From Marsupella aquatica (Eukaryota; Plantae; Marchantiophyta), in the NCBI GenBank assembly GCA_973895155.1, contig OZ316896.1, positions 1,984,001-2,048,000 of the forward strand: a DNA stretch of 64,000 nucleotides, read 5' to 3'. The stretch's first letter is position 1. Each line of letters starts with the position of its first letter. Below are positions 1 through 36,186 of this stretch, in pieces. The translations under genes and the position numbers were made by a program. Below the pieces are notes generated by a model, which was not told the DNA's origin, searched no databases, and saw only the letters and a program-made list of their open reading frames with translations.

Positions 1-2956
1 CAACTCAGACCAATAGGGCAAAGTGGCTAGTATACTCCACCTGGTCAAACCTGTCCTATCAAAGGTGAAGGAATCATTTGGGTCTGCCGCCCTATCAGCT
101 AGTGACTTCCAATGTGCAAAACTTGTTGCATCAGGAAGTTCACGCTCATCACCAAATGGCATGTCAAAGGAGGAGAATAGAAGTGGGTCAAACCTCATCT
201 CATGCCCCATGAGAAGAAACTTTGTATGCCCAATATAAACAATCTTTCTAATCCATGAACAATATGTGGCCATGTCCTCTAAGCTTGGGCCACAAGTAGA
301 GCAAGCTTTGTACCCCTGAGTTTGCAATCCAGAGACAAAACCAAACCCTGCTTACATAGAAGAAATCAAACCATGCAAACTTTATGTTAGGGTTGTCACA
401 TGAGAAACAACAATAGGAACTACACATTATTGAAGGGTTGCAAATGGCATGGAAGTCATCTTACCAGGATAGTCATGCATTGTCCAACAAATGATCCCTC
501 TCAATTGAAAGACATGTGGAAAACCTCCTGTAATTTTCCTGCCATCATATGCCCACACTCCATTCCAGAATTTTTGAAGTTCTCCAATCAATAGTGCCAA
601 GTAAGTATCAAAGTTCTTCACCTTTTTTGGACCTGGGATAATCAAAGACAATAAAAGGAACCCCTTCTTCATGGATAGCCATGGTGGGAGGTTATAATTC
701 ATGACAACCACAGGCCAAACTGATGTAGGTTGCCCCTTTCCTCCAAGTGAATGAGGGCTAACTCCATCAGATGCCAATCATAGCCTCACATGGCGAGGAT
801 CATGTGCAAAGTCTGGCCATGTTGCCTCAATATGTTTGTGAGCAGGGGAGTCAACTGGCAACCGCATGACACCAGACTCTGATCGATGAGTCTTATGCCA
901 TACCATCAACTCTGCCAAGTCAGAACACCGATACATGTGCAACAACCGAGGAATGATGGGAAACCAATGAACAGCCTTCCTTGGCACCTTCTTTGTTAGC
1001 ATGTTGGGGTCATAGCGAGGCTCATCACATGTTGTACATTGTGTCATGTTTGCATTGGCCCCATGCAATCATTCACACATGCATGAACAATATGATATTC
1101 CATGCCAATAGATGAGAGAACACTCTTTGCCTCCTTCCAAGTTGCTGGCAACACATTCTCAGTGGGTAACATAAGGTCATGGCAAAGTGCAAACATATCA
1201 GATAACAAGGCATTGCTTGCCTTGTGTTTGGCCTGTAGGTTCATCAACCCCAAGATGGCTGAAAGACGACTCAAACGAGCACCCTCATAGATAGGTGTTC
1301 GGGCATGTTCCTCTGCTTCTTCCCATTGGCGTTGTCCCTCAAGGGTATGTCTTGGGCGTGGATCATTGGGGGGCACCTGCCCTTCATTGGGAAGGTCATC
1401 ACCAGGGTTGTCGGCACCAAACCAATCAACCATGAAGTCATCCATGGCTCTATCCTGGTCATCAGTTACTTGTTCATCCATCCGAGGTACCTCTTCATCA
1501 GGGTTACTGCTTCCACTAGCACTTGATGAGGAGTGTGACTCTGATCCATGTCCTTCTTTTGGCATACCCATTTCTCGATATGTTGCTCTCAATCTCTGTG
1601 GTAACATATTTGGAGAGGGTCGCACATTCTAAAAACAAAGCAAACAATTGAAAGTTATATTGCAAAGAGAACACACACAAAAATGGGCTAGGGGTGTGCA
1701 AAAATGAAATAATATTGGTTGTGGTGCAAATACAAAATGTGGCCAAAGGCCATATGTAGTGTCCTTTGATATGCAACATACCACCTATGACCCTTACTTA
1801 ACCCTAATCCCACTCATAGTGAGTAAATAACTCATCCCCTGAGTTAATGGTCCTCGTTGCTACAACTAGGCAATGGTCATGATGATATGTCTGGCCATAA
1901 GGTGCTGGCGGAGGACCCTCAATGAAAACCCACTCACAATTTTGCCTACGCTTAGGGCGAGTCCCCACGGTACTGTTTATGAAACCAGCAATATTCCCAG
2001 TCCGTATGGGGTCCCCATCTATGACACGCTGCTCACTATACCTTCTAGTGTTTCCATCAAAAGTATCCATGTCCAATGCATAAGTCTTCCACTCAGGGTG
2101 TTGTGCAAGAATCATGTTCCAATGTCTTCTCTTGTAGATGGGTCCACCATAAGGAAACAAAGTAGGCCCCTCTCGGCCGCGTCCACCTCTACCACTCTCG
2201 GCGTCCACAATGATGTCCTCACAAGCAAAAACTCCATAGCCATGTCTATCCCCAATTGTGGAAGGTTTGATAACCCAACGTCTACCCCAAACCTTTACCT
2301 CCGCACCGTAGGAAAGCTGTTGTGGCCAACCAAGAGTCTCAGGATCCCAGTCCTTGATGATAGGGACACATCTGCCAGTGAACTCACAATCACCCCACCT
2401 ACCCGTAACCACTGCCTTGTACAAATCAGTATCCCCTCGGGCCCGCCTCTTGGAACGCTTTCTCCCTCTTGGGACAATAGCCTCAACCCCAACTTCCCTA
2501 GGACTGGTGGGCCTTGCCGCTAGACCCAAGGCTTTTGAGAATGCATTGCCTATAGCATCTAGAACACCTTGTGATGGGACATAGGGTGCTTGTGCAGCAG
2601 GTCTAGGCCTATTGGATACCTATTCCACCGAAACCAAAACAAACAAAAGTAGGTGTGAAATTAAAAACCTTCAACCATTGAGTAATGGGAATAGGGTAGG
2701 AAAACTAAGGCATAACACTTACCATATGAGATGAAGAAGCCCCTGGCGTATGACGTCCACAACGCCCATATCTCTCAATATGTTGGGCACATATGTAAGA
2801 TTTTTGGGAAACCTGACCCACACATCTGGAACATTCACAAAGTTGACGGGGTGGACCGCAAGGAGGAGGTGCGGTCGTGTGATGTTGAGGTGGAGGTGGT
2901 GTATCTTCATCAGAGGAGGACGAGTCTGTGGTGGAGATTTCAGAAGATGAAGACAT
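1..2956 (-). pseudogene. CACTA/En-Spm TnpD-like transposase (element 1), spliced, running off the left edge; one frameshift (~1050) and one stop (778-780)
   Basis: Exon 1 2956-2723 has a transposase-associated Zn motif (LCECSRC..CAQHIERYG). Body from 1628 has tnp2/Transposase_21 motifs: IVHACVNDC, CTTCDEPRY, WFPIIPRL, VDSPAHKHI, HVRL*LASDGVSP, SVWPVVVMNYNLPPWLSMKK, WTMHDYPG. GT-AG intron 464-348, then GFGFVSG..GYKACSTC..LPYW. Confidence 0.9.
1804..2619 (-). CDS. SET-domain (lysine methyltransferase-like) exon inside the first intron of the CACTA transposase; predicted 349-aa Zn-motif+SET protein with exon 2956-2723
   Basis: SET motifs in order: IKPSTIGDRHGYGVFA, FPYGG, YAL, IDGD..GNIAGFINS, NCEW, LVVATRTINSGDELFTHY. 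Open frame with no stops; acceptor AG at 2621-2620 is phase 0 and matches the donor ATG|GTAAGT at 2722. Confidence 0.88.
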   Translation of the reverse strand, partial: VSNRPRPAAQAPYVPSQGVLDAIGNAFSKALGLAARPTSPREVGVEAIVPRGRKRSKRRARGDTDLYKAVVTGRWGDCEFTGRCVPIIKDWDPETLGWPQQLSYGAEVKVWGRRWVIKPSTIGDRHGYGVFACEDIIVDAESGRGGRGREGPTLFPYGGPIYKRRHWNMILAQHPEWKTYALDMDTFDGNTRRYSEQRVIDGDPIRTGNIAGFINSTVGTRPKRRQNCEWVFIEGPPPAPYGQTYHHDHCLVVATRTINSGDELFTHYEWD

Positions 2957-3677
2957 ATCCCCTGTAACAAGATATAATTAAAATGGGCATGTTATGACCA
3001 AAACATACCACAAAATGATATAAATCAAAGTTCCCAAATAATGATGACAAGAAACCCAAACCAAAATGACCATAGCAATAAAAAAAGGTACCTTTATGAG
3101 ACCCGGGCTCAGCAGTGCCAATAGGTCAAGGCTCTAAGATAATTAATGAACCCAATCTGAAAGTATGAGGGAAAAGCTGCAACCATTCCATGTATATGTA
3201 AGCACAATAATCTGGACCAGACAAGAACAAAAAACCCTATATACATGTCCCCTTTATACATAGTGGCAACCAAAAGTGTTAAGTACATGAAAGGAACACT
3301 TGAGCCGATCATGCAATGTTTACCTTTCAGATGCCCGGGCTCTCACAATGCATATGCATTAGTATCAAATCATCAAAAGTGCCGCACCCTGCAAGCTATC
3401 ATATATTCCCCTCCTTTGTTAGCAAAACCCATGCCAATCCCTTTTTGATTCATAAACCCAATGAACCTCTCTTAAACCCAAAAGGCTGCAATATAAATCT
3501 CATGAAACCTTGCTTTATATATAAATGATGTTGTTGCATTTAGGGTTTCATTGCATAAAATATGTCTTTGTTGTAAAAGATTTAGTTTTGTAGGTAAGAA
3601 ATGGTTATCGTCACCAATCTCGCATCCTATGCTCTCACCAAGCATGGTCTCGCAGAGGGAGAGCTTTAGTTTTAACT

Positions 3678-3760: not shown

Positions 3761-4810
3761 GTATTATATTACTTTTCATCTTTTCCCCACCTTTTACTAC
3801 TTTACTCCATTTATTATACTTTTCCCTTCCTTACTTTTTTCTATATTGCCCCCCCCCCCCCACCCCTTACCACCCCTCTCCTCTTCCTTTTTCCTTGAGG
3901 CCAACCGAGAGGCCAACTCTTCTGTATCCTTATGGTGCATAGTGTCTTATAATTTGGGGAGTGTATATATAACCTCTATGAGAAATAAAAAATATGTTCT
4001 AATTAGCCTCATAATTACTGTACCTTCAAGTACAATTGCTCACAAGTGTAGAGCTTTAAATGGTCAAATGTGCTTTGGAAGTAGTACCTTGGCCTTAAGT
4101 ACCTTTGCATGTGAAATAAAACTGAGGGGAGACATATGAATGATTCTGGTATATCTAATGGTCATTAAAAATTGTCTTTTCAGTGGATGATCTAGATTTG
4201 TTCCCGCCTTTTTAGATTTTTGTAAGCAAACCAGCCCCAAAAATAGGCAGGATTGCATATTATAGTATAACTTGATTGATTAAAAAATGTACTTTATGGC
4301 CACCATAAGGGGGGACTTTACAAGACGGTGGGGGTCGTTCAGTCTCTCTCCATCTAGCAAAGCTGATGGCCATTTCCTTCCACAAAAGTTAAAATGCCTT
4401 AGCCAAAATGTGTCAGGTTTGAAAGTAATCAATGCAATTCCCTGAAAATAAACAACCATTTGCTCCAAGTTTTTAGACCACCTCAAGAGGAGGTCTAAGT
4501 TTTGGACAAAAAAGGTTGCACACCTCAGCAAAAAAGGGACCCACAAGGGGCTCACTCACAAATGACTAGGTTCAGTAATGCTTTTGGTTCATTGTGCCCC
4601 CAAGTTCATGTAAAGTGAAGTGTGGCCAGTTCCCACATATGAATGGCTAGGATTGCAGCTTTCACTTATATAGAAAAAAAAGAATTGTTGCCCCCAAGTT
4701 CTTGTAAAGCCACCCTAAGGTACATATGATTGTGCATAGAAAGACAGATGTGCATAGAAAAAAATATGGTATGGTATATATGATTATTAAATGATTACAT
4801 GCATGATGTG

Positions 4811-6116
4811 TGACAGGGCCCCAAACCCGGTAGTAACTTAGTTATAACTTATAATTGCATATATAAGTAAAAAGACAAGTAGGTGTAGCAAAAGTGTTTG
4901 GATTTTTTATTTTTTTAGTTTTTGTTAGTTCTAATAAATTGATGCGACAACCAGAAGCTGGAGTTGAGAGGGGTGTTGGGCGGTGATGGATGACAATGGA
5001 GCCATTGAGGGGGTACAAGGAGGCCAAAAGGCAGCCCAAGGACTTGGAGGCCAAGGTGTGGGCATCTTGGAGGGGTGGGGGCTGGTCGGAGGCTCCACGT
5101 AAGGCGCAAAACGGGAAGAATGACCAAAATATAGAAAACGTTGAAACTTAAAATAGACGTCGCTGCGCTAGTATATTCCAAACATGACCATGTTTGGATT
5201 CATCTTGAAGCCCTCAATGAGCCCCATGCAAAACTGGGGCTCTCTAGTTGATTTTAGGTCTATATCAAACAGTGAATCCAACAATGTGTCACACGGCCGA
5301 AACGGAGCTAAGACGGGGGAGATACAACAGATCGCATTTTTTGAGAATACAGGGGTTTTCAGGCCGTACGGACGTCCGTACTACAAGAGGTACCGGATTT
5401 GCAAGGGAAGGAGGAGGTAGCAGCACATACGAGGAACCGTGATCCGTGTTTTGCAAAGTCTGGGCCCCTTGGTGTTGTACGGACGAAACGGAGGGAGATA
5501 GTACCCCGTAATAACTTGAATGATCATATCTTGGCTGTTTGACCTCCGTTTTGTGCACCGTTTATGGGGCCGTGATCAGGAAGAGGAGGTCTCCTCATAT
5601 ATGTTTTCAGATTTGAAATCTGAGAAAATTTTAGTTTTGACAATTGTAGGGGCCCCCTCCTTTTACGGCAGATCGGTGGTGGCGATCAGGAGGATTGAGG
5701 CTGGTAGGCAGGGTACATAGATAGGATAGGAGGTGGTGGACTCAAGTGAGTCCTTGTTCAGCATAGTGGTAGTTGGCACCATCGAAGGCACCGTTGGTTC
5801 CGTAGTAGATTAATTAGGGTTTTAGGTGGCATGTGTGTGCCACATGACTTAGGTTAGGGATTTCTTGAATGAGGTTTTAAGTGGTGCTGCTAGGGTATCC
5901 GCCATCGTTGTGACCCCATGAGGGGTGCTTTGGTGTTTTTTTTGGTATTTAGGGGGGAGCCTCGTAGTGATAGGGGGGACTCAGTCTAGTGTTGGTTTAG
6001 GGAAGTTATCTCATAGCCTGAAGAGAGAATCAAGCTAGAGTAGTGAGGTAGAGGTGTAGCTTTGCCCCAATAAGGCAGGAGTTGGGCAGACGGCAGGAGG
6101 CCGGGTTGTCCTTGCA
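4811..6116. mobile_element. Solo LTR (1306 bp) of an LTR retrotransposon
   Basis: Starts TG(acaggg) and ends (ccttg)CA; perfect 5-bp TSD ATGTG at 4806-4810 and 6117-6121; composition differs from the flanks. Confidence 0.85.
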
Positions 6117-6119
6117 ATG

Positions 6120-8123
6120 TGTTACGATTTCTTACCGGAAGATATGGATTTGGGTTGATTCCTGAAGTTTTGGTGTGGCATTATCTTTTCTGTGTCACGA
6201 TTGTGTTCTTTCCCTAAGAAGTGTCTAAGGAATCCTTGCACGGATTGGTCAACCATGTGAGTACGCGGGGGGTGGTGACTGCACTCCATCAGCGACCAGC
6301 AGCTAAGAGTGTGTGTGGTGTAGTCCATGGAACTTGATGAAAAGCAGAGAGGCTAGTCGGTAGACTTGATCAAAAATTACACTTCGGTCCGAGAGCGGAA
6401 TCAAACATACTTATCCTACATGCAATAGAATCCCAATAGCGTCCCTCCACGTTCCCATCATACAATAACAAATGATTTTAGTATGAGGAAATACGTATTT
6501 GTCGTGTAAATCGTTTGATAAGCAGGTGACATGATGATTTTTTATCAATTTATTAACCTTTAAAGAATAGAAATAAAGAATATATAATGCTGACATTTTT
6601 ATTGTCCTCCCTGCTATTCACGTTGTCTGGGGGAAAATGTGGTTCTTGAGGAAGTATCGGGCCTATGGCTGCTAGTGTCAAGAGAGAACTTAAGTTAAGA
6701 TCATGATTACTATTCTAGATTGGGTAGTAGACACCACAAGGAATGGTTCTGTGGATGAAAGCACAACATCATAACCCTTTTCTCCATACCTACGGACTAT
6801 TGCCTCATTGGCAGCTACCTTGGGTCGAGTTACAAAACGAATATCTCCCAACGAGAAAGAAATGGGAGGTTCATCGGAGGGAGGTTTGTTGAGATCCAGA
6901 TCAAATACAAGATAAAAATTGTGCAAGCCCAATCCTGCCCGTAAACTACATAAGGGTATACAAGTGGCTCTATTGAATTTAAGACTAGAGTTGCAAATGC
7001 TTCTCCAAAGTGAAAAGTCATATGCTGACGCATTATCTCTTTTTGGAGTACATGAATTCTAATAAGGAAAAGATTAGGGAGAGAAAGAACAGGTACTTGT
7101 CTGGGAATTATCGTACTATCAAATATTTCATCCAACTAATATTCATTCAGATAATGACAAGATATAGAATCATTCAGCAAAAAAAAGATCATTCATTCAA
7201 ACAAATACTATGCATTGAGTTAACTCTAAGTGTATACATGTAGATGTTTATCTTAATAAGTTTATCTTCTTTTGAATAAAAACACTATCTGAAGTCCAAC
7301 GCATGCAAATTACCACTGACTGAGTTAAGCTCCAAGCTAGCGTGCATGCGTGGGTCTACTTCATAAGGGTTTCACCCAAAAGGAACATATGATGTCAAGG
7401 TATTGTTGAGCACTTTCCAACTCTTTAGGACTTAATAACCATCTCCTATCAAATAATAATACTTTTTGAAGATCCAACTCATACAAAATATCTCCGGTCA
7501 AGTCGAAGCTCTAAGCAAGCGTGCATGAGTGGGTCTACTTCATAAGGGTTATATTCATATAAGAGGTCATCAAGTCCAATGGATTCTTAAGGCTTCACAA
7601 CTTAGTCGATGAAAAATGGGAAGTAAGGGGAGAGAGCCCCTCTCCTATTTATTTATAGAGCTCACACCTCAAGCACACGGATCAAGCATGGCACACGGAT
7701 GGAAGCCATGTGTCACACACCCAAGGCAAGTAAGTGTGCTAGTATTGTAGTTACGTGAGTGGAGCAACTATAGGCAGTACACTGTAGCATGCACATTGTA
7801 GATCGTATATTGTAGCATGTATATTGTAGATCGTACATTATAGCATGCACGCTGTAGATCGTACACTATAGCATGCATACTGTAGACCATACACAGTAGC
7901 ATACACATTGTAGATCGTACACTATAGCATGCACACTGTAGATCGTGTACTGTTAGTAGCATGCACATTATAGACTGTATATTATAGTATGCACGTTATA
8001 CACATGCATATAATGTGAGATTTCAAACTACTATCCTATATTACTAAGCTATACTTAGGAGGAACTTACTAAACAAAGAATCCCCACGATAACGTTCATG
8101 TTGAGCATAGACGACATTCGTAA
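6120..8123 (-). mobile_element. Probable LTR-derived segment, truncated at its right end
   Basis: Ends tgttacga... and ...tcgtaa form an imperfect inverted pair. Minus-strand TATA-like ctataaataaataggagag at ~7650; internal ~177-bp duplication (7290-7550) and a 28-bp tandem array. No TSD found. Confidence 0.4.
7777..8005. repeat. 28-bp tandem minisatellite (~8 copies, built from 14-bp subunits)
   Basis: Consensus gtacactgtagcatgcacattgtagatc, repeated with mostly transition-type variation. Confidence 0.9.
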
Positions 8124-8380
8124 TGGCAAGCCCATGAACCATCCAACACACAAGAGTCAACACAGAGAGATACGTGGTTCACCTCCACATGAGGCTATGT
8201 CCACGGGAATACACAAGAGCTTTACTGCACTCTAGGCCGACCGGCCATACCAAGCATCCACAACACAAGCTCTCCCTATCTCTCAACTAGCTTCGTAACA
8301 ATGAGCCTAAATTCCACCAGGGTCTGGCATCAGCCCTGGCTATATGCACAACAGCACTACCGCTAACATTAGCTAAGTCT
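8124..8380 (-). repeat. Copy 1 of a ~255-bp direct repeat; Copia-like LTR fragment
   Basis: Nearly identical to 9652-9907 (ggcaagcccatgaacc...acattagctaagtc); contains gatacgtggttcacc. Confidence 0.75.
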
Positions 8381-9616
8381 CAAAAGGGTACACCTTTTCA
8401 TACCTCCTTTATGTTAGGCTTCCAAACCTATAAAGTCTTTTAGAGTTACTCCATGGGAAGGAAAATCTTATTCAGTGTGGAATTTGCTGATTAATTCTCC
8501 CTCCTTCCATTGTAACAAGACATTGAGAGTCAAGGTCTTGTATGGAAGTAAAGCTTTGATTTTAAAGTGTGATTAAATTCAAAACTCTTTTGTGGTGATT
8601 GAATAATTTAATGATTAGCTTCTGAGATTTACATCAAATTCACTACTAAGCTTGCTCGCTGTGACATGATTCGTTAGCCAGCTCGAGGATGAATGTTGTT
8701 TGTGAGAGGCAAAATTCCATTCTCAGAGTAATTAGTATCGATTACCATGCACTGGAATAAACTTTAGAATTTGACTTAAGTCATGTATCATACTTAGTCG
8801 AATCATGTTGACAATATCTTAAGGTTTATCATTGCATTTGTAACCAGAAAATTACCCTGGGTTTGGTGAGCAAAATTCCCGTAATCAGCATTATTATAGG
8901 TTAGAGAGAAAGGTTGATTGAAGAATGATAGCAAGTTACCATTCTATACGTGCTAAGACAAGAGTCCTTTCTTAAGGAGTGGCAATGTTAAAATGCTAAT
9001 CAAATCATCTCAGTCTAAGTTTATCCTCTCCTATAACTCATAAGACCATTTGTTGTTGTTTTGATTAATTTGTTTACTTCTGTTAGGAGTAAATGTGAAT
9101 AATAGAGAGCAAGAGGCTCTAAAACTCTCAAAAGGATAAAAATGTTTAATTCAATCCAGTTTTGTTCTTAAAGGGATCGAAACTCGAGTCTTTATGTGAA
9201 AAGAAACACTTTTGATTCTTCCATCTATACGATATCATTTTGGCGCCGCTGCCGGGGAACAAATTTGGAATTGGATTGAACCTAAGTGGGCAATGAATGC
9301 CAGATTGTAAAATTGGAAGAGAGAAAAGAGTTGCATTGATGACCAAATCAAAAGAGAATAAGGAGTTTACATTTGTGGTGCGTCCGATCACCATTGAGAA
9401 TGCCCCTAAAGCATTCTTAAAGAAATTGAAGGAATCAATGGAGAGGGACTGCCCCATGAAGGAGGTACTTAAACAGGAGACATTGGATGATAAGGAGGCA
9501 TGAGGAGGATTCTTTCCAGCATAAATTGGAGGAGAGATTTGCCAACATTCTATGGAATAGAGCCCTAAATTATGTCTGAAAGATTCAAAAATTATTTGAG
9601 AGAGAGAATCCTTTCA
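8381..9616 (+). mobile_element. Athila/Tat-like Gypsy fragment: 3' part of a 5' LTR, PBS and degenerate leader/gag start
   Basis: LTR end ...acgatatCA (9237) followed by tggcgccgctgccgggga (9241-9258), the tRNA-Asp-type PBS typical of Athila/Tat elements; LPTFYG remnant downstream. Confidence 0.65.
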
Positions 9617-9970
9617 GTAAGAGCGGACAGTTGGTCACCATGGAAGGAGACGGCAAGCCCATGAACCATCCAACGCACAAGAGTCGACACAGAGAGATAC
9701 GTGGTTCACCTCCACATGAGGCTACGTCCACGGGAACACACAAGAGCTTTACTGCACTCTAGGCCGACCGGCCATACCAAGCATCCACAGCACAAGCTCT
9801 CCCTATCTCTCAACTAGCTCCGTAACAATGAGCCTAAGTTTCACCAGAGGTCTGACATCAGCCCTGGCTATATGCACAACAACATTACCGCTAACATTAG
9901 CTAAGTCCTAACCCGAGTTAGACTAACTGTGGTTAGCTCATGAGTCACAAGACTAGAGCAATATCTAACA
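9617..9970 (-). mobile_element. Copia-like LTR containing copy 2 of the ~255-bp repeat
   Basis: On the minus strand it begins TGTTAGATATTG at 9970, with agttag motifs and gtgaaccacgta; left boundary uncertain. Confidence 0.5.
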
Positions 9971-10713: not shown

Positions 10714-11340
10714 CACTAGTGGAAAATAGTGTCCTTAATGACTAGAATGAGGACTAAAAAACGAGTCATATGTACCAATATATGACTAGAGCTTTTCTGT
10801 CATACCTGCCTCGTCTTTTAGGACAGTCAATTAAGACAAATGACTAAAACTCTCACTAGTCATTTATGGTAGTCCTAAATGACACAATATTTTTGAAATG
10901 ACATGTTGTCCTAAATGACTGAATGAATGGCCGTCAGTCATTTAGGCATGTCTTTAATGACACATATTTAAACAAATCATATTACAACACGTGGCAACTA
11001 CGCACGGTTGTCATTATATGTCATTTCAGACATGTCATAAATGATACAATAATAAATCATTTAAGGTGTCATTTAGTGTGTCATTCAAGGTGTCGTACAT
11101 GGTGTTATTAAAAATGTCATACAAGGTATCATACAAGGTGTCATTGAGGGTGTCATACAGGGTGTCATTGAGGATGTCATACATAGTGTCATATATGGTG
11201 TCATTGAGGGTGTCATTGAGGGTGTCATATATGGTATCATTGAGGGTGTCATACATGGTGTCATTGAGGGTGTCATACATGGTGTCATTGAGGGTATCAT
11301 ACTGGGTGTTTTTAAGTAATGTCATTTGGGATGTATCTAA
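10714..11340. repeat. Subterminal repeat region of A, including a 12/24-bp tandem array (11060-11310)
   Basis: Alternating gtgtcattgagg / gtgtcatacatg units, each with the GTCAT core; putative TnpA-binding sites. Confidence 0.88.
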
Positions 11341-11589
11341 GAAGAGCTCATAGTTATATTCAAAATCACATACAATGAATCCACTTAAAACCCTAAACAA
11401 AGACATCACTTTGCGCATCATCATTGTATTCAGAAATTCACATTCCAACATTCACAAGCTCTAGTATAGAACAATTGAAAAAACATAAGTCTTTATGATG
11501 AAGTGATAGAAAGTACACATTTTTCACTCGCATGAGTGAAACAATGGTAACCAAAATATTCAAAAATTCTTTGTTCTACATGATCAGAG

Positions 11590-14500
11590 AAAATGTTCAA
11601 CACTTCCAAAGAAACCTAGCATTCCACAATGTATTCATTCCTAACACATTTCGTAAGCAGAGTTGTTTCTCTTCTTTGTTGGGCATTGGCAATGTTGCAT
11701 CACCACAATACACTGCCTTAACTAATACTCACACCCAAGGACTCTCAATCATGACACAATGAAATTTATCCTCTCTTGGTAACCCTGTCACTTCACCTCT
11801 AGCAACAACTGTAGAGCGATCCACAACGCTTCGTACTTCTATAGCATCTCCTTTTGAAAACTGCCACACAAAATTGTTAGGACAAATACTGTCTTGTAGT
11901 ACTGATTTGGGCATATCATCAATTTAAGAACATAAGCCAACTGAAAACAAATTCACCTTTGCTGCTGGATTTGGGGAGAGAACTGGTCCTCGTTCACTAG
12001 GTGAGATAGTGATAGGGGTTGATTTCTTGAATCTCTTTGAAGGCCTAGGTGGTGTAGCCTCTTATTCCTGAATTGTATTTGACACTATCTGTTCATCTGT
12101 GATAGCAATCTCATCACTCTCACCATTATCAATGCTGCTTTGTACAACGCAAGGTTCCTGCAGTGCTCCCAAATTTGCTTCTCCCATACTTGGCTTTGGC
12201 TTCTGCCTTGTTAAAGTATCTGATTTCTCTCGCTGTGATACAGGATTCTCCCCTGAAGAAGCTACCACAAAACCAAACAATGAATGCTTAGAAGACTTCA
12301 TTCTAAATTGAAAAATAAACTATTGCATATGTAACATGTTTAGAGTATAAGTTTGTATGTTCTTACCATCACCATCACCTGAGAAAGTAAGAGAACGTTT
12401 CCTGCTATTACCTTTAGGCTCAACCACCACCTTAGTAGCAATTGCATTTGATAATTGCATATGGAACTGATTCTGTTGATTTTGTGCAATGAAAGAAGTC
12501 ATCATAGATGTCAAATTGTCCACTTTGAATTCAAGCTTGGTTAAATTCTCCACAGACTGTTCAAGCTTGAGTAATCGAGCTGGTTCCTCAATTGTAGTTT
12601 CCCTGGACAGTGGAGTCTACATACACAAACACACCATACAATGTCAATCATCAATGATAATTTGAACATCATGGATAACTGATAATCAAAATTGAATATA
12701 TACACAGGTTTTCATTACATACCGCTGATCCATGTGCAGATCCAATTCCAACAAAACTACTGCCTCAATGTTCACCACTACCCATAGATGGACAGATCTG
12801 CACTGGGGGGACTGGACTACTAGACACAAGTTTTGATATAACGGGGCTCGTCATTCCTTTTGCTTTTTGGAAACACAAAATCACATTCAAAGCAATTGGA
12901 ATATTAATGAGAACTCATCATGTCATTGTTTATTCCTATACTAGATAAACACTTCAATTCAAATGACAGTCTAGACCTGCAATGAGATGGACCATCTGAA
13001 GATTCTTACCAATCTTTTTTCTGCTCCAGCAGCCCCTCCTCTTCCAAAATGCTCTTTGTTCACCACTTCTGCCCTCCTTGCTTTCATCACAGCACTCCTT
13101 GCAAGCAAAGCAGGACTATCAAAATGATCCACCAGTCGTGCCCATTTCAATGGGTCAACATATTGAGGTCCTGGTTTGGAGCGATCACGTTTACATACAT
13201 CCTTCCAATAAGTATTTAGTTTGTGACGTTCTCTTTTCAATAATGTCCAACAGTGTCTAATAAATTTCTTGTCAGACACTAACTGCTTATCTGGATACTC
13301 CCAATCTGCCTTCATCAATTTCTGCACATCCTCAATTATGTTTGGATCTTGTTTGTTCCAATCAGATACTGATACATCAAAAAGCCTCAAGACATTGGCA
13401 CGTAGCTCCTCCATCCAATATGGTTTATTAGGATGAGAATCATCAATATCATTGTCATGAATTTGAAAAAAACACCACAAATGATAGTCATCAACATTGG
13501 GAATGAAACAAACACCAAATTGCTTCTGAGTACACAAACTATAGGCCACAAATGTGAAATGTGCAATGAAAATCTTACCGTTATCAATTTTCCCTTCTTA
13601 TTGTCAGCCCTTCTTGCACTACTACCGGTTCTCTGGAATTGTTTTTTGGCTTGCCTAGATTCCCTGTGTTGCTCTGTTGCAGTCTTTCTTCCCTCTACAT
13701 ACACAATGAGCATCCAATATTGATCATCCACAATTGCAAAATGAGGGACAAGAAATATTACCTCGGGGGTTTCACTTCCACAAAAATGGCATATCACGTG
13801 CGACGAAGGATAGGGTCATTTTATTGGTTCTAAGGGAAGACTTAAGAATTTTTGTAGAAGAACAATAGAGTCTTTTAAATTCAATTTTGAGACTTATAAG
13901 AACATTAGGGTCTTTTTAATTCAATTTTTAGAATATTCCAAGAATATTCCAACTTTATAGGGGTTAAAAAATTAAAAAAAATTCTTACATTTTAGGGGGT
14001 CCGAGGCCTAAAAACGTCGCAGGCGATGGGGAGGTCCCCATATAGTGAGACCCCTGAGAATATTACAATATAATAGGAGGACCCTTCATTGAATTTGACT
14101 TACCTGAACCCTGACTGGATGTCACTACTGCAGAGTGTCTAGATTTCTCAATCGATGTTGATGGAACCACCACTATACACATGCAAACCACTAGAGTTAT
14201 GAATCCAACATTCATATAGATCAACATTGAAAAATACATTGAAAATCTCTGAAATTACTTACATTCAAATAGCTGGCCAGTCACAGGGTCTTTGTAACAT
14301 TGCACCATGCCACTCATGGAAGGTCCAACCTTTGTAGGGGTTTCTTTTGCATCTGCCAAGCTCTTAGATGGAGGTTGCAGATGTTCCTATCCAGATCAAG
14401 TTAAAACGAATGTTATTAAACAAAATCATTACCAATGTCTATAGTTTCCTCATAATGTTGGTGAAATGTAATAGGAATCTCACCTTGGATAAATTTTCTG

Positions 14501-14690
14501 GTTTCTCATCTTCACTGTACTCAGCATCAGTGTCATAATCTGATTCAGAGCCCTCATCACCAGACTCTGCCATACTCACTAAGGCAATTCTTGATAGTCT
14601 GGAACTCTGTGTGGTAACCTCACTTCTAGGAGTTCGACGTGCACTTGTTTCCTTCTTGCGCCCTACGGTCTGTGTTGCACCCAATCTACA
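11590..14690 (-). CDS. Multi-exon TnpA/Tnp1-like gene of A (Transposase_24-like exon plus C-terminal Tnp1/En/Spm-like domain); exon limits approximate, probably degenerate
   Basis: 12971-13549 encodes YWMEELRANVLRLFD...KWARLVDHF...HFGRGG; the last exon encodes FSKGDAIEVRSVVD..VVARGEVTG..FHC..TLWN. Collinear with the homologous exons in B. Confidence 0.75.
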
Positions 14691-14983
14691 TGAGAGAATA
14701 TCAATGAATGAATGACAAGTATCAAAAACCAACTCATATTGTTGATGAGCAATATTAACACATCTTTGCACATTCAAAACAACATGCAAGATTATACTCA
14801 CATGAAATTGAAATTTTCTCCAAATATCTCCCTGAATTTTCTATTGTTGTCTGCTACCTTCTTATTTCGTTCCTCTTCATATGGAGGTATTTGCTGCATT
14901 CACTGCTAGACTATGGCATGCCATGTTAGTATGATCCCACTCCCAACTAAATGAAACTGGACTGTACAGTATCTTCAAACCAT

Positions 14984-17900
14984 TCATTTCCTTTTATACT
15001 TTCTTTTTCCTTTGTCTGTAGTACTTGGTCCAGGCTCCTGTCTAGTTATACAGGCTTCTGCCAACTCTATGTGAAACTTAGCATTGTCATCCATAGTATC
15101 ATGGAAATCAACTTCCATGTAATCACCCAACACTCTTGTAGACCTGGATTCCTTGTGGAGGATTGTCCTCCATGCAATCCCCTTATCATTTGGATAAAAA
15201 AACACCTGTTCTATCTGTCGTGGCAATACATAGTCCATTTTCTTGGAAGCACCCAGCTCCTTCTGAAAATTTACTTGCCACAATCCAGACGCATCATATC
15301 TCATACTTGCAGTGGCTTTGGGAGTCCAAGATGGGTTTGCCCACCTTCCTTTGAAAAGGACCACTTCCTTTATCAGAGGCCCATAGTTCAACACTAAGAT
15401 GTCTGTCAACACCCCCACATATTGTACAAATTCATCTACTATTGCCCCTGACCTAATGACCCGCTTCTCAGTGAATGTACAAGCCATCCCAGAATCAAAA
15501 GTCTTGAACCCAGATGAGTCACAATCAATCAAGGAACCTAGTGATGGAATGGTCCTCCAATGGTGCCCATAGGCTCTGCAGGCCCTGTACCGCAGTGCCT
15601 TCAGACTAGGTGGTACACTATATGCTGCCAACACCATTCGTTCAAACTCATTCTCAAAATTATGCCTTCTAATTGTCACTTCAAACCATTCTCTAAAAGG
15701 AGGCAATTCATCCAAATCAGAGGGATAAGGCACAGGATTCCTCCAATTTCCTGGATTCTTCATCCATTCTTTCCAGAAATCTGCTCTGTGCTTGGTAACT
15801 GCCTCCTTTTGATCATCATAAACCTTGCATGGCAAGAATGATAGTCATCTCCTAGGCCCACACAATTTTTGCTCAAAACTCAATTCTGTTTAATAATAAA
15901 CAACAGAGAACTTAACAATATAAATCATGGTCATACCTATACCATGGTTCCACCAGCTCTTCATTCTCCAGTATGTAATGATGCATAGCTATCATATCAT
16001 TCCACTCCAAGGAGATTTGTTTTCCAGCTCCTTCCAAGACAATGCCTGCAACACCAGGATTCTCCTCCAAGTCCCATGTTCTCATTCCTGTCCCCTTAAC
16101 ATCGATCATGTATTCAGAAAGGAATCCTAAAGATTCATCCAGAAGGTAGCCTTCAGCCATAGAAGGCTCTGGACGTGCCTTGTTTCGAACATAACCCTTC
16201 AAGGTCTTTAGATATCTTTCTATTGGGTACATCCATCTAATGTTCACTGGACCACAGATGTCTAGTTCCTGAACCAGATGAATCAGCAGAGGGGTCATGA
16301 CATCAAGGAAGCTTGGTGGGAAATGAATTTCCATAAGGCAGAGTGTGAATGCAACATCCATCATCACAGAGTCGTACTATGAGGGATCCCAAACCTTGGC
16401 ACAGATGGTACGCCACACATTGCTCACTCTGGCTATGGCCAACCAAACACCTTCATCAAGTAATCCCATTGTTGCCAATCGAAGGATTTGTTGCATGAGG
16501 TGGTGGAAATCGTGAGATTTCAGCCTTGATAACTTCTTCTTAACTGTGACACATTTAGCCAGAGAATTGCTGAAACCAGTGGGCCCTTTAAAGGTCAACA
16601 ATACCTCTAAGAACTTAGTCTTCTCTGTCTTACTGAGGCAATATGGGGCTGGCGGCATGATCTTTGAATCCTTTTTTGGATCTGGATTTGGAACCAGCCA
16701 CAGGTGTTCTCGCACGTCCATGACTTTCATGTCTTCTCGAACAGAAGGAGTATCTTTTGTCCCAAAAATAGTGTGCACAATGTTGTGCGCAAGATTCTTC
16801 TCACAGTGCATGGGATCCAAACAATGGTTGATGAGAAGTTTCTGCATTGGAAGCACAGTTCAGTACAAACTAAGTTAGAATAAGAAATGTTACTCTTTGC
16901 TACTTAACATTACACACTGAGGGATTCAGTATGGGGAACCAGATACTTACACTCCAGTACGGCAGCTTGTATAATCCAGTAACCCTCTTCACTCCATTCG
17001 CCTTTACTGGAGAATTTTCATCATCCAGTGCATTCCCTGGTTTCTCCTCCACATATTCAGCGGCCTTCTCTCCCCAACGTTTCCTATCAGAGCTGGACAC
17101 TCTACACGGTGCAGCTCGTGCCTCTACCTTACCATTAAAGTATTTTGCCACTTCCTCTTTGCGGAAATAGTGCCTCTGTGGTAACCAGCAACGATGGCTA
17201 GCAAATAGTAACTTGCCCAACTGTTTTGAACCATGTGCCACACAATTTGGCCCACAAACCACACATCCTTTGTACCCTGCATGTTGTTGGCCAGAGACTA
17301 ATCCATATGCAGGATAAACATTGATTGTCCACAATATTGAAGCCCTTAGCTTGAACTGTTGCTGCAATCCTGGCCTTGGTAGAACATCAAAACAATCTAC
17401 TCCTTCTGACCATAATGTCTCAAGATCATCCACAAGTGGAGCCATGTATACATCAAATTGTTCCTCGCTTACAGACACAGGACCTGGAATTAGAAGAGCT
17501 AGCATGACAAAGAACTTCTTTGTGGAAAGCCAAGGAGGGATATTATAATTCAACAGCAGGATTGGCCATGTAGACCAGGCAGTAGAATTATTCCCAAATG
17601 GATTTACCCCATCAAGTGCCAATCCCATTCGCACATTCCTTGGCTCAGCAGCAAAAGCAGGGTCAATCTCTGTGTCCACATGTTTCCATGCCTTTGAATC
17701 TGCTGGATGTCAGACCATGTTGTCCTTGCTCTTGTTCTCATGATGCCAAGTCATTAGCTTAGATGTACCCTTAGTGGCATACAATCTCTTCAATCAAGGG
17801 ATTATAGGGAAATATCTCAAGACCTTCACAGGCTGTAACGAATTCCCTACTAACTTCATCTTTGGCTGATTACACTTGGAACAATTGTCCAACTCTACAG

Positions 17901-18768
17901 TCTCATTTCTAAATAACATACATCCGTTCTCACAGACTGGGATTCTCTCATAGTCTAAACCCAATTTTCTCAGTAATTGTTTTGCAGCATATAGGTTCTT
18001 AGGGAGAGTGTGCTCTATTGGCATTCCATGCTCAGTCAATAAAGACAACATGGCATTCACTCCCGTGTTTGAGAACCTATTGTTGTGACAGATGTTTAAA
18101 AACAATAACATGAAGGAAACTACATCTGTCTTACTGCCTGGAAATAAGGGTCTCATGGCTTCTTCTAAAGACCCTTGCAAAGGGATAGGATTCGTAGGAT
18201 GCCCTGCTGTAGGTGTGTCCTCATGACTGGTCTCAACAGAGGGTGGATCTGCCTCATTCTCATCATTTTGAAACATTGAATCTATATCAAAAGGAGGATC
18301 ATTGTCAACATATTCGTCAGACTCTTCAGAAGCTCTTGCCAATGTCTCTTGAAGTAAAACTCGTACTTGCTCTTCAACATCTATTGATGGTTGGCCTGAG
18401 TGGATTGCCTCTCAAGACATTCCTACCCTCAGTGCCTCTGGAGCAGAGTTACGGATGTAATTGGATCTCCACTCCTCGTCAGAAGAGTCTTCACCCTCTC
18501 CTACCCACACTCGACAGGCAGGGTAGCGGCCATATTTAAGAAGATGTTGTTGACTGGTCTTTCAAGTAGTCTTAACAATCCCTTTGCATTCCATGCAAGA
18601 GCAATACATTCTATGATCAGCACTACCAGAGCAAGCTGTCTGTTCCCGAGCCCATAAGTTATCATCACGTCGTTGTATTCGACATGGATGGGAAAGAGGT
18701 AAACTTCTCAGGTTGTCTGCCTCTGTTGTATGTGCAGTGTTATGTGACCTAGCCTGGCTAGAAGCCAT
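14984..18768 (-). pseudogene. TnpD transposase of A (Zn motif, tnp2, DUF4218- and DUF4216-like regions) with frameshifts/stops and two introns
   Basis: MYCSCMECKG; IPVCENGCMLF; LALDGVNPF; TWPILLLNYNIPPW; DPMHCEKN; LKSHDFH; RWMYPIER..LKGYVRNKARPE..MAEGY; YVGVLTDIL..QVFFYP. Broken into several ORFs. Confidence 0.92.
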
Positions 18769-19770
18769 GATTGCAGCGCTACCTAATCAAAAACACAGTT
18801 GCACATCTTTCTTCTGTGACATCTTGTAGAGCTCTAGACAACTCCAAAACCCTTCCATACCATCTTCTAGAGCGTCATGTGAAGCAAATGTGTGCACAAG
18901 TGAAGAATAGACATACATTTGAGGTACAGTACTCCAACTGAGGTAAAGGCAGCTCCCACTTTAGCCTTCATTGCCAATAGAATAGTACATGCATGCCAAC
19001 AACAGGTAAACAGATGACATATTAGCAACTTGATCAGAAATTATTTACTTGGATACGTTACCTAGTCTCATTTCATATTGTAAGTGGCAATGGGTATTTG
19101 AAGGAGACCTGAATTGTTAAAATCAAAATGACAAAAGTTTACAAGACCAAATAAAGGCCTACCTCAACCAGATTTAAGGCAAGGGTGTGGCCAGTAGTCA
19201 GCAATCTTAGACCCTTCAAACAGTGAGTACAATAACAAACATTAATCATAATGTCCAACAATCCCCTCCTTCATTATGTGACTTTTGAATTCATTTGTTG
19301 AAATGATCCTCTTCATCAAGGCAGTTGGTTTTGGGCAGGTACTAGAATAGATTCCAGATCACAACATTTCATCATCCCCACACAAACCAGGATACATATG
19401 GACAAGGGCCTGAAAGGGTTTCATGTAATGTACATAATTAAACATATAGTGTTTTTGTGCAGTAGTAAGAATGAAATACACACTCAGTCTTCAAAATCAT
19501 CAAAAATGAGAAAGTTCAGAGACCTGGGTTGAAGGAATTCTTAAGGCTGTGGGTTTAGAAAGGCAGTCTACACTAAAAACATGAGAGACATTAAGTGAAG
19601 TTTGCCTTCTTATGGCCAGATCCCTCAACGGGGACAACAAAAAATTTAAGACCTTGGGTGGATTTTAGGTCTTGCTCAGGTCAGTGTGATGTTTCTTAGT
19701 TTTTTGTTATGGATCTCCATTCAGGCTCTTCACATGTTTGCCACTGACACTCTTAACAGTCATCATACAA

Positions 19771-20217
19771 TCAAAATTGATACTGGTCTTTCTCCACTAA
19801 GTGTTGCTCTACTCTAGGGCAAACAGTCTCAACCCCTGGTCCCAAGACTGGCTCATCATGGTGGAATATTATACAGGCACACCTTCTCTGCAACCTACTG
19901 TGTCCATCCCGCCTATATATATCCCCTGGGTGCACTCGACATTTTGGGCAAAAATCCTCACAACTGTGGATACAGACAGAGTAGCATATCTGCTCTGGTT
20001 GTACCACTCCATTATCAACTGCCACAATACAAAAACCTATGGGCAAGGGTGGAGCATCTAGAGTAATGTGCCGACTGTATGTGTCTCTATGTACAGGCAA
20101 AAACTCCCATTGCACAGCAGAACTGGCAGGGACCAACCTCATTCCACTTAGCTTCAGGCGTAGCCTCTCAGCTCTGCCTTCAAGGTCAGCTCCCAAGCTG
20201 CTGCGTGTCCTTGGCAT
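19771..20217 (-). CDS. Unknown Cys/His-rich accessory ORF in A (~148 aa from MPRTRSS)
   Basis: Open frame between the PHD gene and TnpD on the same strand; CYSVCIHSCEDFCPKC..CACIIFHH cluster. Confidence 0.4.
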   Translation of the reverse strand: MPRTRSSLGADLEGRAERLRLKLSGMRLVPASSAVQWEFLPVHRDTYSRHITLDAPPLPIGFCIVAVDNGVVQPEQICYSVCIHSCEDFCPKCRVHPGDIYRRDGHSRLQRRCACIIFHHDEPVLGPGVETVCPRVEQHLVEKDQYQF

Positions 20218-20309
20218 TACTATGACAAATACAAGAAGCAATAGTTTATCCAACCCAACACTTTCAATGAATTTCATGCAAGTAACAATTTAACATTTAA
20301 CTATTTCAT

Positions 20310-20465
20310 ACAATCAGATACTTTAGTCCATTTGAGTTTAGTCCATTAGACAGTGTAGTCCAGTTCATACAATCAGACAATTTAGCCCACTTCATACAAT
20401 CAGACATTTTAGTCCATTTCATACAATCATCCTACTTTAGTCCATTTCAGTTTAGTCCATTGAAT
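20310..20465. repeat. Short tandem repeats (catacaatcagac/ttagtccattt)
   Basis: About 4-5 degenerate copies, mostly ~27 bp apart. Confidence 0.7.
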
Positions 20466-20633
20466 CCAACTTGACACTTCACTCCATTTTCATCCAACCA
20501 AAAACTCAGGTGCTCCACTGTACCCCTCTAGTTCATTTTGATGTCCAATATACTTCCATAAGTCCTTAGCCCATTTTAAGTTCAGTATACTTTGTACTAT
20601 GCAGTATTTTCTATACAACTGAAGGCTTATGAT

Positions 20634-21344
20634 CTATTTGAAATCATGAGGTGGCACATCAGAACCCTCTGGAATGACATGGCGATTGCAGTACACCATA
20701 TGCCATGGACCAATATCCCATGTTTCTCTACCCTTCACCCCTCTCTTCAAGTGTTTGTCTGCCTCTGGTCCCTCATCCCTGCACCACACACGAGGGCACC
20801 TATGACACTGGATAAATTCCCATATGCCATCCGCATACTCCTTACACACATCACAATAATGCCTTGGGCATATCAGAGCAGCGGGATGTGCATCTGAGTT
20901 CTCTGCGTACCCCATGAGAGGCAACTCCTTGGCCCTCAGTATGGTCCGCAGACATCCCACATGATAAAAAGAAAAGTAGTCATCCTGTGCACACTGGACC
21001 ACAAGGGGCTCATCTGTAGTGGGCTTTAGGGTTCAGCCAAGTAGTCCACAAGCAAAGCAACGACCTCATTTCTGTTGACAGAGGTCACAGAGCCACTCCT
21101 TGGCCCAATCATGCCCTCTAGAAATGGCAACGGGTGTGCACTCAGGCCCATGGCCATCAGGCTCCTCAGAATCCTGCCCATCAACTAAGTAATGGAAATG
21201 ATGACTGCAAGGCCCATCGCAGAACAAAACAATACCTCCCTCATCACATTCAAAACAACAAGGGGGATCCATGCGGAGGTGCTCTTTATGGGCAAACTTT
21301 GGATCCAGCCAGGCAGCAGCAGTCCGTGCCATGCCTGATGTCAT
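20634..21344 (-). pseudogene. EDM2-like composite PHD-finger gene in A; two in-frame TGA stops
   Basis: One frame reads CFECDEGG..CDGPCSHHFH..WLCDLCQQK*GRCFACGLLG*..VQC..FYHVGC..ICPRHYCDVC..IQCHRCPRVW..MVYCNRH. Stops at 21068-21066 and 21035-21033 are consistent with CGA>TGA. Confidence 0.85.
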
Positions 21345-32906: not shown

Positions 32907-35760
32907 CTATTGCTTCTTAAGCAATCTAGAGTTCCATAGGGCATTCATCCCTTTCACATCAGATAATTTAGACTGGTTCTCCCCTGAATTGGCAAATGGC
33001 AATGCCACATCTACAAACACTTCAATCACACGCACTCGCAAGAAAGGGCTTTCAAAATCTGCACAATGAAACTTATCTTCTCCTGGCAGCCCTGTCACCT
33101 CACCTTCTACCACTATCATGGAATTGTCCACAACGCTCTTCATCTTCACCAAATCTCCTCTTGCAAACTGCGAACAACACATTTTGTTAAAAATGCAATA
33201 AACAGAAATTGAAAGATAGAAGAACACTCAAATCAAACACACATTTACCTTTGCAACGGGGTTAGGAGACTGCATTGGTTTCTTCTGTGCAGGTGATGCA
33301 TTTGCTGAGGATCCTTTCTTCCTTTTCTTCTTTCCCTTTCTAGTTGATGGAGTGTCATCCTGCTCACTTGGAATGGGAGTTTCTTTTGGCAACTCAGATG
33401 ATTCTGGGGTTACATCTGGTGTCAACTGAGTCGACTTATCCTCTGGCAACTGAAAGGCATCTGAAATGGCTTCTTTGGGCAACTTAGATGGCAAAAGGTT
33501 CACTTCCAATTCAGTTTGCTTTAGAGTACTGTTAGCTATGTCAGTTGGTCTTCCCTGCAACACAGGAGGCTCCCCTAAAGATGCTGTCATAAAACACACA
33601 CAAAAGAAATGCATAAACAAACATGTATACACCAGCAACATATAATCACACTAAAAACATGCAAGAACATTATAAACATGCAATGACATATACACATCAC
33701 AATAATTACATTGAATGGACAGTGTATACATGATAGAGAATTTTACCTTCATTATCGCCTGAAAAAGTAAGAGATCGCTTTCTACTACCTTGTTTGGTAG
33801 TTGTAGTCAACTTACTGTGACTAGGCACAACTGTTGGAACTTGTGCATTACTGGGGTGATGTGCCATCCACGTAGTCATCATGTTTGTCAACTCCCTCAT
33901 AGTGCCTTTCAACTCAGCAATATCCAATTTCACAGCCCCAATGGCAGTTGATCTCTTCTTTTGAATGTGGGGTCTGTAAATGAACCACAAACCAACACAA
34001 CAGTCTCACTGTCAAACTTACAAATGACACAACACTAGCTCTGTCAAATGGAGAATGATGTACAAATCAAATTAATTGGTATGACAATACTCACAGCTGA
34101 TCCATGTCTGTTTCCTCGCCCCAGTAAGCTAGCACTTTTACCCTCCCCACTTGCCAATGATGGGCTCACCTTTGCTCCCACAAAACTACCAGTCTGACCT
34201 TCTGCACTTGCCAATGATGGGCTCATTGTCACCTTTGGCAATGAACCCTGACTACCATGGTTTTCTTTCAGGTCAGATATACCTGGGCTTGATCCTCTCT
34301 TCTGCTTCTGTTCAAACACACAATGAATGAGAAATCACAGAGTCTGTTTTCATCAAGATTCACAAACAAGACAAAATTGATAGTGAAAATGATAGACAAT
34401 TTACCATTCTCTTTGCTGCTGCAACATGCCCTCCCCTTCCAAAGTGAGAGGTATCTTGCACTCGTGCTCTTTTATCAGTCATCTGTTTACTCAAAGATAT
34501 CAATGTTGGACTGGTAAACTGAGATACCAAAGCTGCCCATTTCTTTGGATCAACACCAGATGGCCCAGGTTTGGTTGGATCCTCATTGCAAACTTTCTTC
34601 CAATAAACATGCATTTTATGGCGCTCTCTCTTCAATATGCCACGACAATGACTCTGGAATTTGGTGTTAATAAATTCCCCACCCACATACTCCCACTCAG
34701 CTGCCATGTTATTCCACACTGTGGTTGTATGAACTTGTGGATGATCAGTCCATTTTGGCTTTGATACATCAAAGACTCTGAGTACGTTGCCACGAAGTTC
34801 CTCCAGCCAGTATTGTTTGTTGCCATCAGAATCATCAATATCATTGTCATAAATCTGCATTTCACAGACAATGTCAGATCATAACTCTAGAATTTATGCA
34901 GAGTCCAGGTTTTATACACACAACAACAGAGAGGATCAGATTTGTCTAAATCTACATTCAAAACAAGTACAATACTCACTTTAATGTGTTTGGGCACCTC
35001 TCCGCAATCCCTTCATTGTTTGGCAGTATTATCAAACTGCTTCTTAGCATGCCTTCATTCCCTGCACATCTCAGAGGCCCCTCCTGCAATGCACACACAT
35101 GCATTCAATCAAAAAATATGTACATGATTGAAAATTTGAGCAAATGTACTTGCATATGCATGACGAGCAGATTGTGTATTACCTGAAGATCCTCTGGAAT
35201 GTAGTACATCAGATTGACCTGATCTGCCTTCAGATGCTGATGGAACCACTAAACAAACACACAACACCAAAGCACTTCAATTAATTTCATTTCCAAGTAG
35301 AATATCAACTTCCAAACACACCTGAAAAGTAGAACAGTACAATCCACTCACTTTCATATAAGAGTCCAGTGTCTGGGTCTTTCCAACATCTCACCAGCCC
35401 ACCTCCACCAGGCCCAGTCTTCTTAGGACCACGATTTTGTTTCTGTACCTACATCATGGACAACGTAAGCATATCAACATATAATTTGAAAAAGGGACAA
35501 GGATCCCTTCCTATTAGGATGATGAAGTTCAAGCATTACCTGTTGTGCACTCTCTGGTTCTGACCCTCCAATGTCAGAATCCTCAGTGTCATACTCAGAA
35601 GGAGAACCATAGCCATCATCACCAAACTCTGCCATGTTCACCTTGGTAACTTCTGATAGTCTAGAGCTCCTCCTCTTTGGCAATGTTTCAGTTGAAGTAC
35701 CTTTCACCAAAGCAGGCTTTCCTCTCTCTCGTTGTACATGTGTGGTTGGGCCTCTAAGGA
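32907..35760 (-). CDS. Multi-exon TnpA/Tnp1-like gene of B; exon limits approximate
   Basis: 34360-34860 encodes YWLEELRGNVLRVFD..KWAALVSQF..HFGRGG; 33706-33990 has SRKRSLTFSGD, shared with A; the last exon encodes FARGDLVKMKSVVD..GEVTGLPGEDKFHC..ALWN. Confidence 0.78.
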
Positions 35761-36186
35761 ACAAAGCAATCATCAACATACACCAATGCAGATCAAACAT
35801 ACATGCAAAATGAATCTACAACACCGTAACACTAGTACTTATGTACAGGATCCATATATACTAGTATGAGACCAATCTGGAATATGAAAACTGAACATGA
35901 ACCTGACAACTCCATCTACTGAATCAAATTTGCAATAGACATATCAACACACACATCAGCTTGCAGTCTGGCCCCAGTCCTAGATCACGCATAATTCTGA
36001 CATTATGCTCTATGTTCCGATTTTGGGCCTCCTCATAAGGATTCACAGAATGTGACAACCCCTGCAATCTTCCTTTCACAGGCTGCATTCACCAACTGCA
36101 CAAATGGGTAAACCATTAGTCTGATTTCATAAATAGTCCATACATGTAGTCCATCTATGGACTTCACACACCTAGCTAAAACCTAT

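Follow-up and report, generated by a model that had tools for sequence, protein, structure and literature searches.

A SET-domain exon nested in a bryophyte CACTA transposase gene is predicted to share the first coding exon of the transposase

In a CACTA (En/Spm) element of the liverwort Marsupella aquatica, one pre-mRNA likely gives rise either to a transposase or to a predicted SET lysine methyltransferase that begins with the same zinc motif and may serve the element. The element copy lies at one edge of a 64,000-nucleotide stretch of DNA (GenBank assembly GCA_973895155.1, contig OZ316896.1, positions 1,984,001 to 2,048,000 of the forward strand), which we call the window and whose numbering is used below. 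The structural core of this proposal is well supported by comparison of sequences: a single first coding exon (exon 1) faces two alternative acceptors, one opening a SET exon and the other opening the body of the TnpD (Transposase_21) transposase. SET genes on transposons and alternative splicing of the Spm type are already known; the literature searched gave no account of the shared-exon layout.

Features of the SET-bearing element copy, in window coordinates
Feature	Position	Strand	Remarks
Putative non-coding 5' exon, 65 nt, inferred	3324..3388	(-)	CAG before, GTAAAC after; both ends also in L022
Putative non-coding 5' exon, 65 nt, inferred	3092..3156	(-)	CAG before, GTACCT after; conserved in L022, L018 and L002
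Exon 1, first coding exon, 78 codons (234 nt)	2723..2956	(-)	Ends ATG/GTAAGT, phase 0
CxCxxC-x13-H motif in exon 1, behind a Ser/acidic stretch	codons 2839-2780	(-)	
Intron A, 103 nt, predicted	2620..2722	(-)	Phase-0 GTAAGT donor to AG
SET exon, 271 codons + stop	1804..2619	(-)	Linker, helix, then SET domain (PF00856)
Spacer, 175 nt	1629..1803	(-)	Predicted 3' UTR of SET, and last part of the 1094-nt TnpD intron
TnpD (Transposase_21) exon	465..1628	(-)	PF02992; broken in the window copy, contiguous in relatives
Intron between TnpD exons	464-348	(-)	Same gap in L041, L058 and L060
Next TnpD exon	1..347	(-)	PF02992, E 1.3e-7; runs off the window edge

A first-pass annotation of the window had proposed the shared exon, and the minus-strand sequence, examined with a script as well, bore out its coordinates and phases for exon 1, the SET acceptor and the TnpD acceptor as well as its intron sizes of 103 and 1094 nt. 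From 2720 to 2500, the SET frame contained no AG other than that at 2621-2620, and the AG at 1630-1629, which closes the longer intron, had a T-rich tract before it and the TnpD frame after it. Joining exon 1 to the SET exon gave the 349-residue product that had been claimed (78 + 271 codons, one stop). Intron A was 64% AT compared with 50% in the exons, and the spacer was 63% AT; AATAAA was absent from the 175 nt of this spacer. The TnpD part matched PF02992 in three pieces in a Pfam search (best E 2.7e-25), and in the window copy it changed frame near 1069-1065 and met a stop at 780-778. The contrast drawn in the annotation between an intact SET frame and a broken TnpD stands as an observation but says nothing about function, because sister copies decay neutrally and ordinary decay can produce the same pattern. 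Its description of exon 1 as the first exon likewise held in part. A putative acceptor AG at 2963-2962, five bases 5' of the ATG and present in 48 of 55 relatives, together with the two splice-like 65-nt blocks, makes it probable that a spliced 5' UTR precedes exon 1, which would then be the first coding exon but not the first exon of the transcript. A GTAAG after the SET stop (1797) was considered as a further donor and dropped, as it was not conserved.

A word-indexed search returned 41 relatives of the SET exon, of which those with an organism name belong to Calypogeia fissa (72%), to several species of Sphagnum (65% at most) and to Riccia sorocarpa, and a search among 50% representatives returned 99 at E ≤ 0.001. 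Twenty of these proteins were looked up, and all ten that carried an organism name were bryophyte; host SET proteins were absent among the top relatives, and one cluster of relatives alone held 360 member sequences. Scanning metagenome contigs with exon 1 gave 65 loci, on which the locus counts in this work are based; most are near-copies of one young family, so that these counts stand for about three lineages, namely the window copy, a Sphagnum type and L022. The SET exon followed exon 1 in 22 of the 24 loci with at least 330 nt downstream, the other two being interrupted, and the order exon 1-SET-TnpD was seen in all nine loci with at least 1150 nt downstream. A sharp CACTAC terminus marked the element start in 20 of the 65 loci, with 18 distinct flanks and mostly 3.15-3.4 kb upstream of exon 1. 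These termini come from relatives, one end per locus; the window cuts its own element at base 1, and the 5' terminus of the window copy was not found, the family-depth cover ending near 3516. DUF4218 lay downstream of the transposase in L060. In run X1, the contigs that spanned intron A and the spacer each had 7 differing letters and a depth of 542-596 (unique flank, about 18); this points to many close siblings, though depth is not a copy number. The window copy is one decayed member of a bryophyte CACTA (En/Spm) family that is multi-copy in Sphagnum, Calypogeia and Riccia.

Two loci are internal-deletion derivatives: in L065 (3335 onward), the middle of exon 1 is fused to sequence from far along the transposase gene, and L034 has its terminus just 1.2 kb upstream. 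In the Sphagnum-type element L060, opposite-strand frames with no Pfam match lie between the CACTAC terminus and exon 1 (7943-9085, minus strand); they are a candidate second accessory gene and were not found in the window.

The splice signals and the reading frames of this family were conserved in a manner consistent with their use. A phase-0 donor GT followed exon 1 in 49 of 49 loci reaching that point, the SET acceptor was kept in 16 of 20 relatives and the phase-0 TnpD AG in nine of nine, so the splice-site conservation that the annotation had proposed to test in other copies was found for each of these sites. Intron A was 103, 111 or 116-118 nt long in relatives, the splice signals staying while intron sequence and length varied. 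Similarity began sharply at the TnpD AG, seven codons ahead of the first Met, the first 23 TnpD codons had a dN/dS of 0.14 (0.02-0.46), and the distant gene model P0139 retained the PS..M.P.RLR pattern of the TnpD start. Between families, dN/dS of the SET exon was 0.23 (0.14-0.35) and 0.26 (0.16-0.41), and that of exon 1 was 0.18, whereas sister copies evolved neutrally (0.5-1.5 in 21 pairs). The SET frame is thus under purifying selection between families and neutral among sisters, the pattern that selection acting on whole elements should leave in their cargo. A lower dS for SET (0.7) than for TnpD (1.4-2.2) had raised the idea of a recent SET swap, which was rejected when the difference disappeared at four-fold sites (0.40-0.50 compared with 0.42-0.61). 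A 217-residue antisense frame over SET was also set aside, being no more than codon shuffles yield.

These comparisons bear on whether the SET stretch is a passenger, inserted independently or captured from the host, that does nothing for the element. CACTA elements commonly capture genes, and the neutral evolution of sister copies would suit such an origin. The SET segment nevertheless occupies the same position in three lineages, with related layouts in Riccia, and the value of 0.23 between families speaks for purifying selection; its top relatives include no host SET, and the longest inverted match between its flanks was 6 nt, compared with 6.8 in shuffled sequences. The possibility of an independent insertion, which had been named in the annotation as one outcome that would overturn its proposal, was therefore not borne out, and the passenger explanation is already largely refuted and scarcely credible. 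The conserved layout and the purifying selection instead mark the SET exon as a family trait and not a one-off insertion. In a TnpD tree of 11 rows, SET-linked transposases fell apart from SET-less ones; having no outgroup, this tree does not give the order of events.

Does the SET exon depend on exon 1? First, the first Met of the SET exon in the window copy is residue 169, past the GxG at 127, and neither intron A nor the upstream 65-nt blocks of this copy contain an in-frame start; with no start codon before residue 169, the SET exon needs exon 1. Second, gene prediction linked exon 1 to SET in 27 models (29 pattern matches less two intron read-throughs). Third, the zinc motif or a remnant of it is carried by eight of the 62 rows in a SET tree, on several deep branches (six of 68 rows were short and left out); among them is P0060, from a 2141-nt Logan contig, whose single frame contains both the zinc motif and SET. 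Run X1 also has a 2588>2717 joint whose ends look like splice sites, which was not counted as a splice. The contigs of the five runs compared behave as genomic ones, and among the rows listed they showed neither the exon 1-SET joint nor the exon 1-TnpD joint. The central claim of the annotation, a shared exon 1 with two alternative acceptors, is therefore backed by conservation, by the transposase-type motif and by the lack of another SET start, with both splices standing as predictions.

Some of the same observations weigh against a nested separate gene, in which exon 1 would belong to the transposase alone and SET would be expressed from its own start codon or promoter within the intron. In Sphagnum-type copies a Met does follow the acceptor at a distance of four codons, and many of them are annotated as 263-residue proteins. 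However, a Met is missing not only before residue 169 in the window copy but also before residue 113 in the Calypogeia protein P0001, the phase-0 SET acceptor is conserved, and P0060 keeps the motif and SET in a single frame, so we regard a nested gene as quite improbable. Even less credit is due to one long product running from exon 1 through most of SET and then into TnpD by way of a donor inside the SET exon, a possibility that we consider very unlikely. The gene models P0028, P0249 and P0093 fuse parts of SET to TnpD, and a GTGAGT at 1937 is kept in five of six relatives; this donor, however, is in phase 1 and so cannot meet the conserved phase-0 acceptor, its codons specify conserved residues, and the fusion would lose the conserved C-terminal motifs and the stop of SET. 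No strong phase-0 donor was conserved inside the SET exon or the spacer.

To place the Cys/His motif of exon 1, the annotation had proposed a comparison with PF13963: a Pfam search with exon 1 gave no match at E ≤ 1, PF13963 included, and the relative P0100 matched that family at E 0.031, below the cut-off. In its spacing, the exon 1 motif nevertheless agreed with the motif at the N-terminus of another, ordinary TnpD of the window, itself a match to PF13963 below the cut-off (E 5.9e-5). When a profile of eight exon-1-type motifs was run against 1188 segments, the N-termini of the two other CACTA transposases of the window ranked next after exon 1 (E 1.6e-4 and 3e-3), a ranking that is partly circular because the profile rows were picked by CxCxxC. 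With exon 1 joined to TnpD, the motif stood 149 residues before the conserved block, compared with 179 in the ordinary element. Against the assignment of exon 1 to TnpD, such a join occurred in none of the 300 proteins examined. Modelled alone, the zinc module reached a pLDDT of 68, with short strands and a helix, and gave no fold match. On these likenesses, the Cys/His motif of exon 1 appears to be of the transposase type, and the phase-0 end of the exon suits the TnpD acceptor, whose phase is conserved.

The two other CACTA elements of the window (12971-21021 and 34360-40243, both on the minus strand) have Cys/His motifs of the ordinary kind at their N-termini and lack any SET-like segment. 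For the first of them, a CACTACAG at 21021 is a candidate terminus, and a short stretch near 4553, within the high-copy repeat at 4300-8100, resembles one just inside this 21021 terminus.

The SET assignment rests on profile and structure alike. The SET exon scored 27.1 bits against PF00856, above the cut-off of 22.4, which agrees with the match predicted in the annotation. A PDB search with a single SET sequence found nothing, and a model built from 66 sequences reached a pLDDT of 92 and confirmed the SET fold for the protein: its Z scores were tied among Set1 (12.0), SET7/9 (11.8), PRC2 (11.7) and SET8 (11.6), the top match having an rmsd of 2.7 over 124 aligned residues, Foldseek gave E 1.4e-7, and the Atlas likewise returned SET clusters. 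Identity to any solved SET was 14-26%, with no subfamily preferred. Glycines of the GxG motif were kept in 60 and 64 of 65 rows, the Asn in 58 of 66 and the C-terminal Tyr in 51 of 54 non-gap rows, and FP[YF]xG was also kept. The usual SET consensus has a His after this Asn (the NH motif), in the cofactor pocket; 64 of 66 rows had Ser there instead. A post-SET region was also missing, the chain ending three residues after the Tyr in the window copy and 1-27 residues after it in 46 rows with the motif. The residue before the final Tyr pair was small in most rows, which by SET rules would presumably allow multiple methylation. The best PDB sequence match was LegAS4/RomA (E 1e-4), which likewise lacks the His. 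RomA is reported to methylate H3K14, and its SET domain alone binds SAM poorly without the C-terminal domain (PMC10653858). LegAS4/RomA, SET8, Set1/MLL and EZH2 have the SET fold, GxG, Asn and C-terminal Tyr in common with the SET exon but differ from it by the low identity given above and by their post-SET or ankyrin parts, which the SET exon lacks. The 349-residue product (Zn-SET) contains no known chromatin-reading domain. Where the annotation spoke of a methyltransferase, the profile and the fold agree, and the activity itself is a prediction; the Zn-SET protein is likely an active enzyme.

One distant member of the SET group, P0118 of Calypogeia fissa (503 residues), has Cys/His repeats with a weak DUF5763 match in place of the transposase motif. 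Repeats of this kind are known from giant-virus proteins. With a viral origin in mind, viral contigs were scanned with P0118 and with the alignments of SET and of exon 1; nothing was confirmed, and the SETs of giant viruses matched the fold no better than cellular SETs did.

In the mechanism that we propose, skipping of the 1094-nt intron would, very probably, place the Cys/His exon ahead of the TnpD body and so restore a normal CACTA transposase. Use of the near acceptor together with a 3' end in the 175-nt spacer would, with good probability, produce the Zn-SET protein, which we predict with somewhat less assurance to be active as a SAM-dependent lysine methyltransferase. It may serve the element, as TnpA and VANC do theirs, most plausibly through a histone mark that counters silencing, and this step, drawn from that analogy, is held only tentatively. 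Its putative route to the element, which the annotation had assigned to the zinc module, would be contact of the shared module with the transposase or with chromatin, and not the reading of DNA; targeting of specific sequences by the exon 1 motif is unsupported, because the DNA-binding domain of Spm is reported as a tandem helix-turn-helix. In the fullest form of the proposal, an old bryophyte CACTA lineage would swap the catalytic body attached to the zinc-motif exon for a histone methyltransferase, the module would dock on the transpososome or on element chromatin, and the mark would override silencing; a plant transposon would then, through alternative splicing, encode a histone writer of its own and direct it to itself. 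Taken as a whole, this version is possible but doubtful.

A different use of the same two splice products deserves weight, although we judge it unlikely: the substrate of Zn-SET might be the transposase or a protein of the host's silencing machinery, or Zn-SET might be a weak enzyme that acts through the shared module as a binding or dominant-negative regulator. The replaced His and the missing post-SET region throughout the family, the distance from all solved SETs with no preference for a subfamily specific to a histone site, and the absence of a known chromatin-reading domain from the product are each consistent with a non-histone role. Against a dead enzyme, however, cofactor and catalytic positions are kept across rows of 26-86% identity, and LegAS4/RomA illustrates that a SET without the His can be an active histone enzyme. 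A SET lysine methyltransferase that would serve the element is the reading that we carry forward, with moderate confidence.

Comparison with known systems places the layout more precisely. In En/Spm of maize and in Arabidopsis Spm3, a transposase and an accessory protein arise by alternative splicing of one unit, and anti-silencing activity has been reported for Spm3 TnpA (10.64898/2026.08.24.746577, available in part). The bryophyte family resembles these elements in having one transcription unit for two proteins, with the alternative splicing predicted here. The parallel drawn in the annotation was therefore fair in outline, but the second product of En/Spm is a DNA-binding regulator with a tandem helix-turn-helix domain, and proteins resembling TnpA seem to be confined to flowering plants. 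Unlike En/Spm, the bryophyte family has as its accessory part a SET fold on the transposase's own N-terminal Cys/His exon. Plavaka elements of red algae, which belong to the EnSpm superfamily, carry PAG2, a SET gene (PF00856) proposed to modulate transcription (10.1101/2025.02.11.637652). In the portion of that preprint available, PAG2 belongs to a group of three separate accessory genes, carries a fused DNA methylase domain (PF01555) as well and is not described as sharing a transposase exon; in our Pfam searches, the SET exon and its full-length relatives had only PF00856 and no PF01555.

SET genes also occur in HarbingerS and MuDR elements of Phytophthora, where they are presumed to counter silencing, and SET-carrying Helitrons are known (both as cited in PMC12730594 and 10.1101/2025.02.11.637652, each available in part). 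These belong to other superfamilies and hosts and are described, as far as those texts go, as accessory genes; the transposase linked to our SET exon is PF02992 and not that of Harbinger or MuDR. VANC of VANDAL (MuDR) is similar in being an element-encoded chromatin regulator in plants, but the accessible descriptions make it a sequence-specific anti-silencing protein without a SET fold. The literature searched yielded no account of a SET exon that uses a transposase's first coding exon, nor of this bryophyte family, and the accessible part of PMC11982613 had nothing on such a layout; Repbase and preprint supplements may list the family.

If the proposal is correct, a mobile element would have a direct route to writing chromatin or methylating its own machinery, and a splice switch would choose between mobility and regulation. 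VANC and TnpA, the plant counter-silencing proteins, are DNA-binding regulators, and a SET enzyme sharing a transposase exon would differ from both. The family also offers a handle on the role of the N-terminal Cys/His motif of CACTA transposases, and many annotated "SET domain proteins" in the genomes of Sphagnum, Calypogeia and Riccia are transposon genes.

Repeats also lie elsewhere in the window. A high-copy repeat occupies 4300-8100, upstream of the SET-bearing copy, and contains a tandem array of 14-bp units (7756-8000). A short repeat of very high depth, SINE- or MITE-like and with a sharp left end at 8099, occurs twice (8099-8380 and 9652-9907), and a 12-bp tandem array of about 27 units spans 11021-11344. 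Farther on, a minus-strand frame at 45518-46108 has weak matches to NSD-like PHD fingers and adjoins a long coiled-coil frame on the plus strand (41553-44489); it may be a further module for reading chromatin that a mobile element carries.
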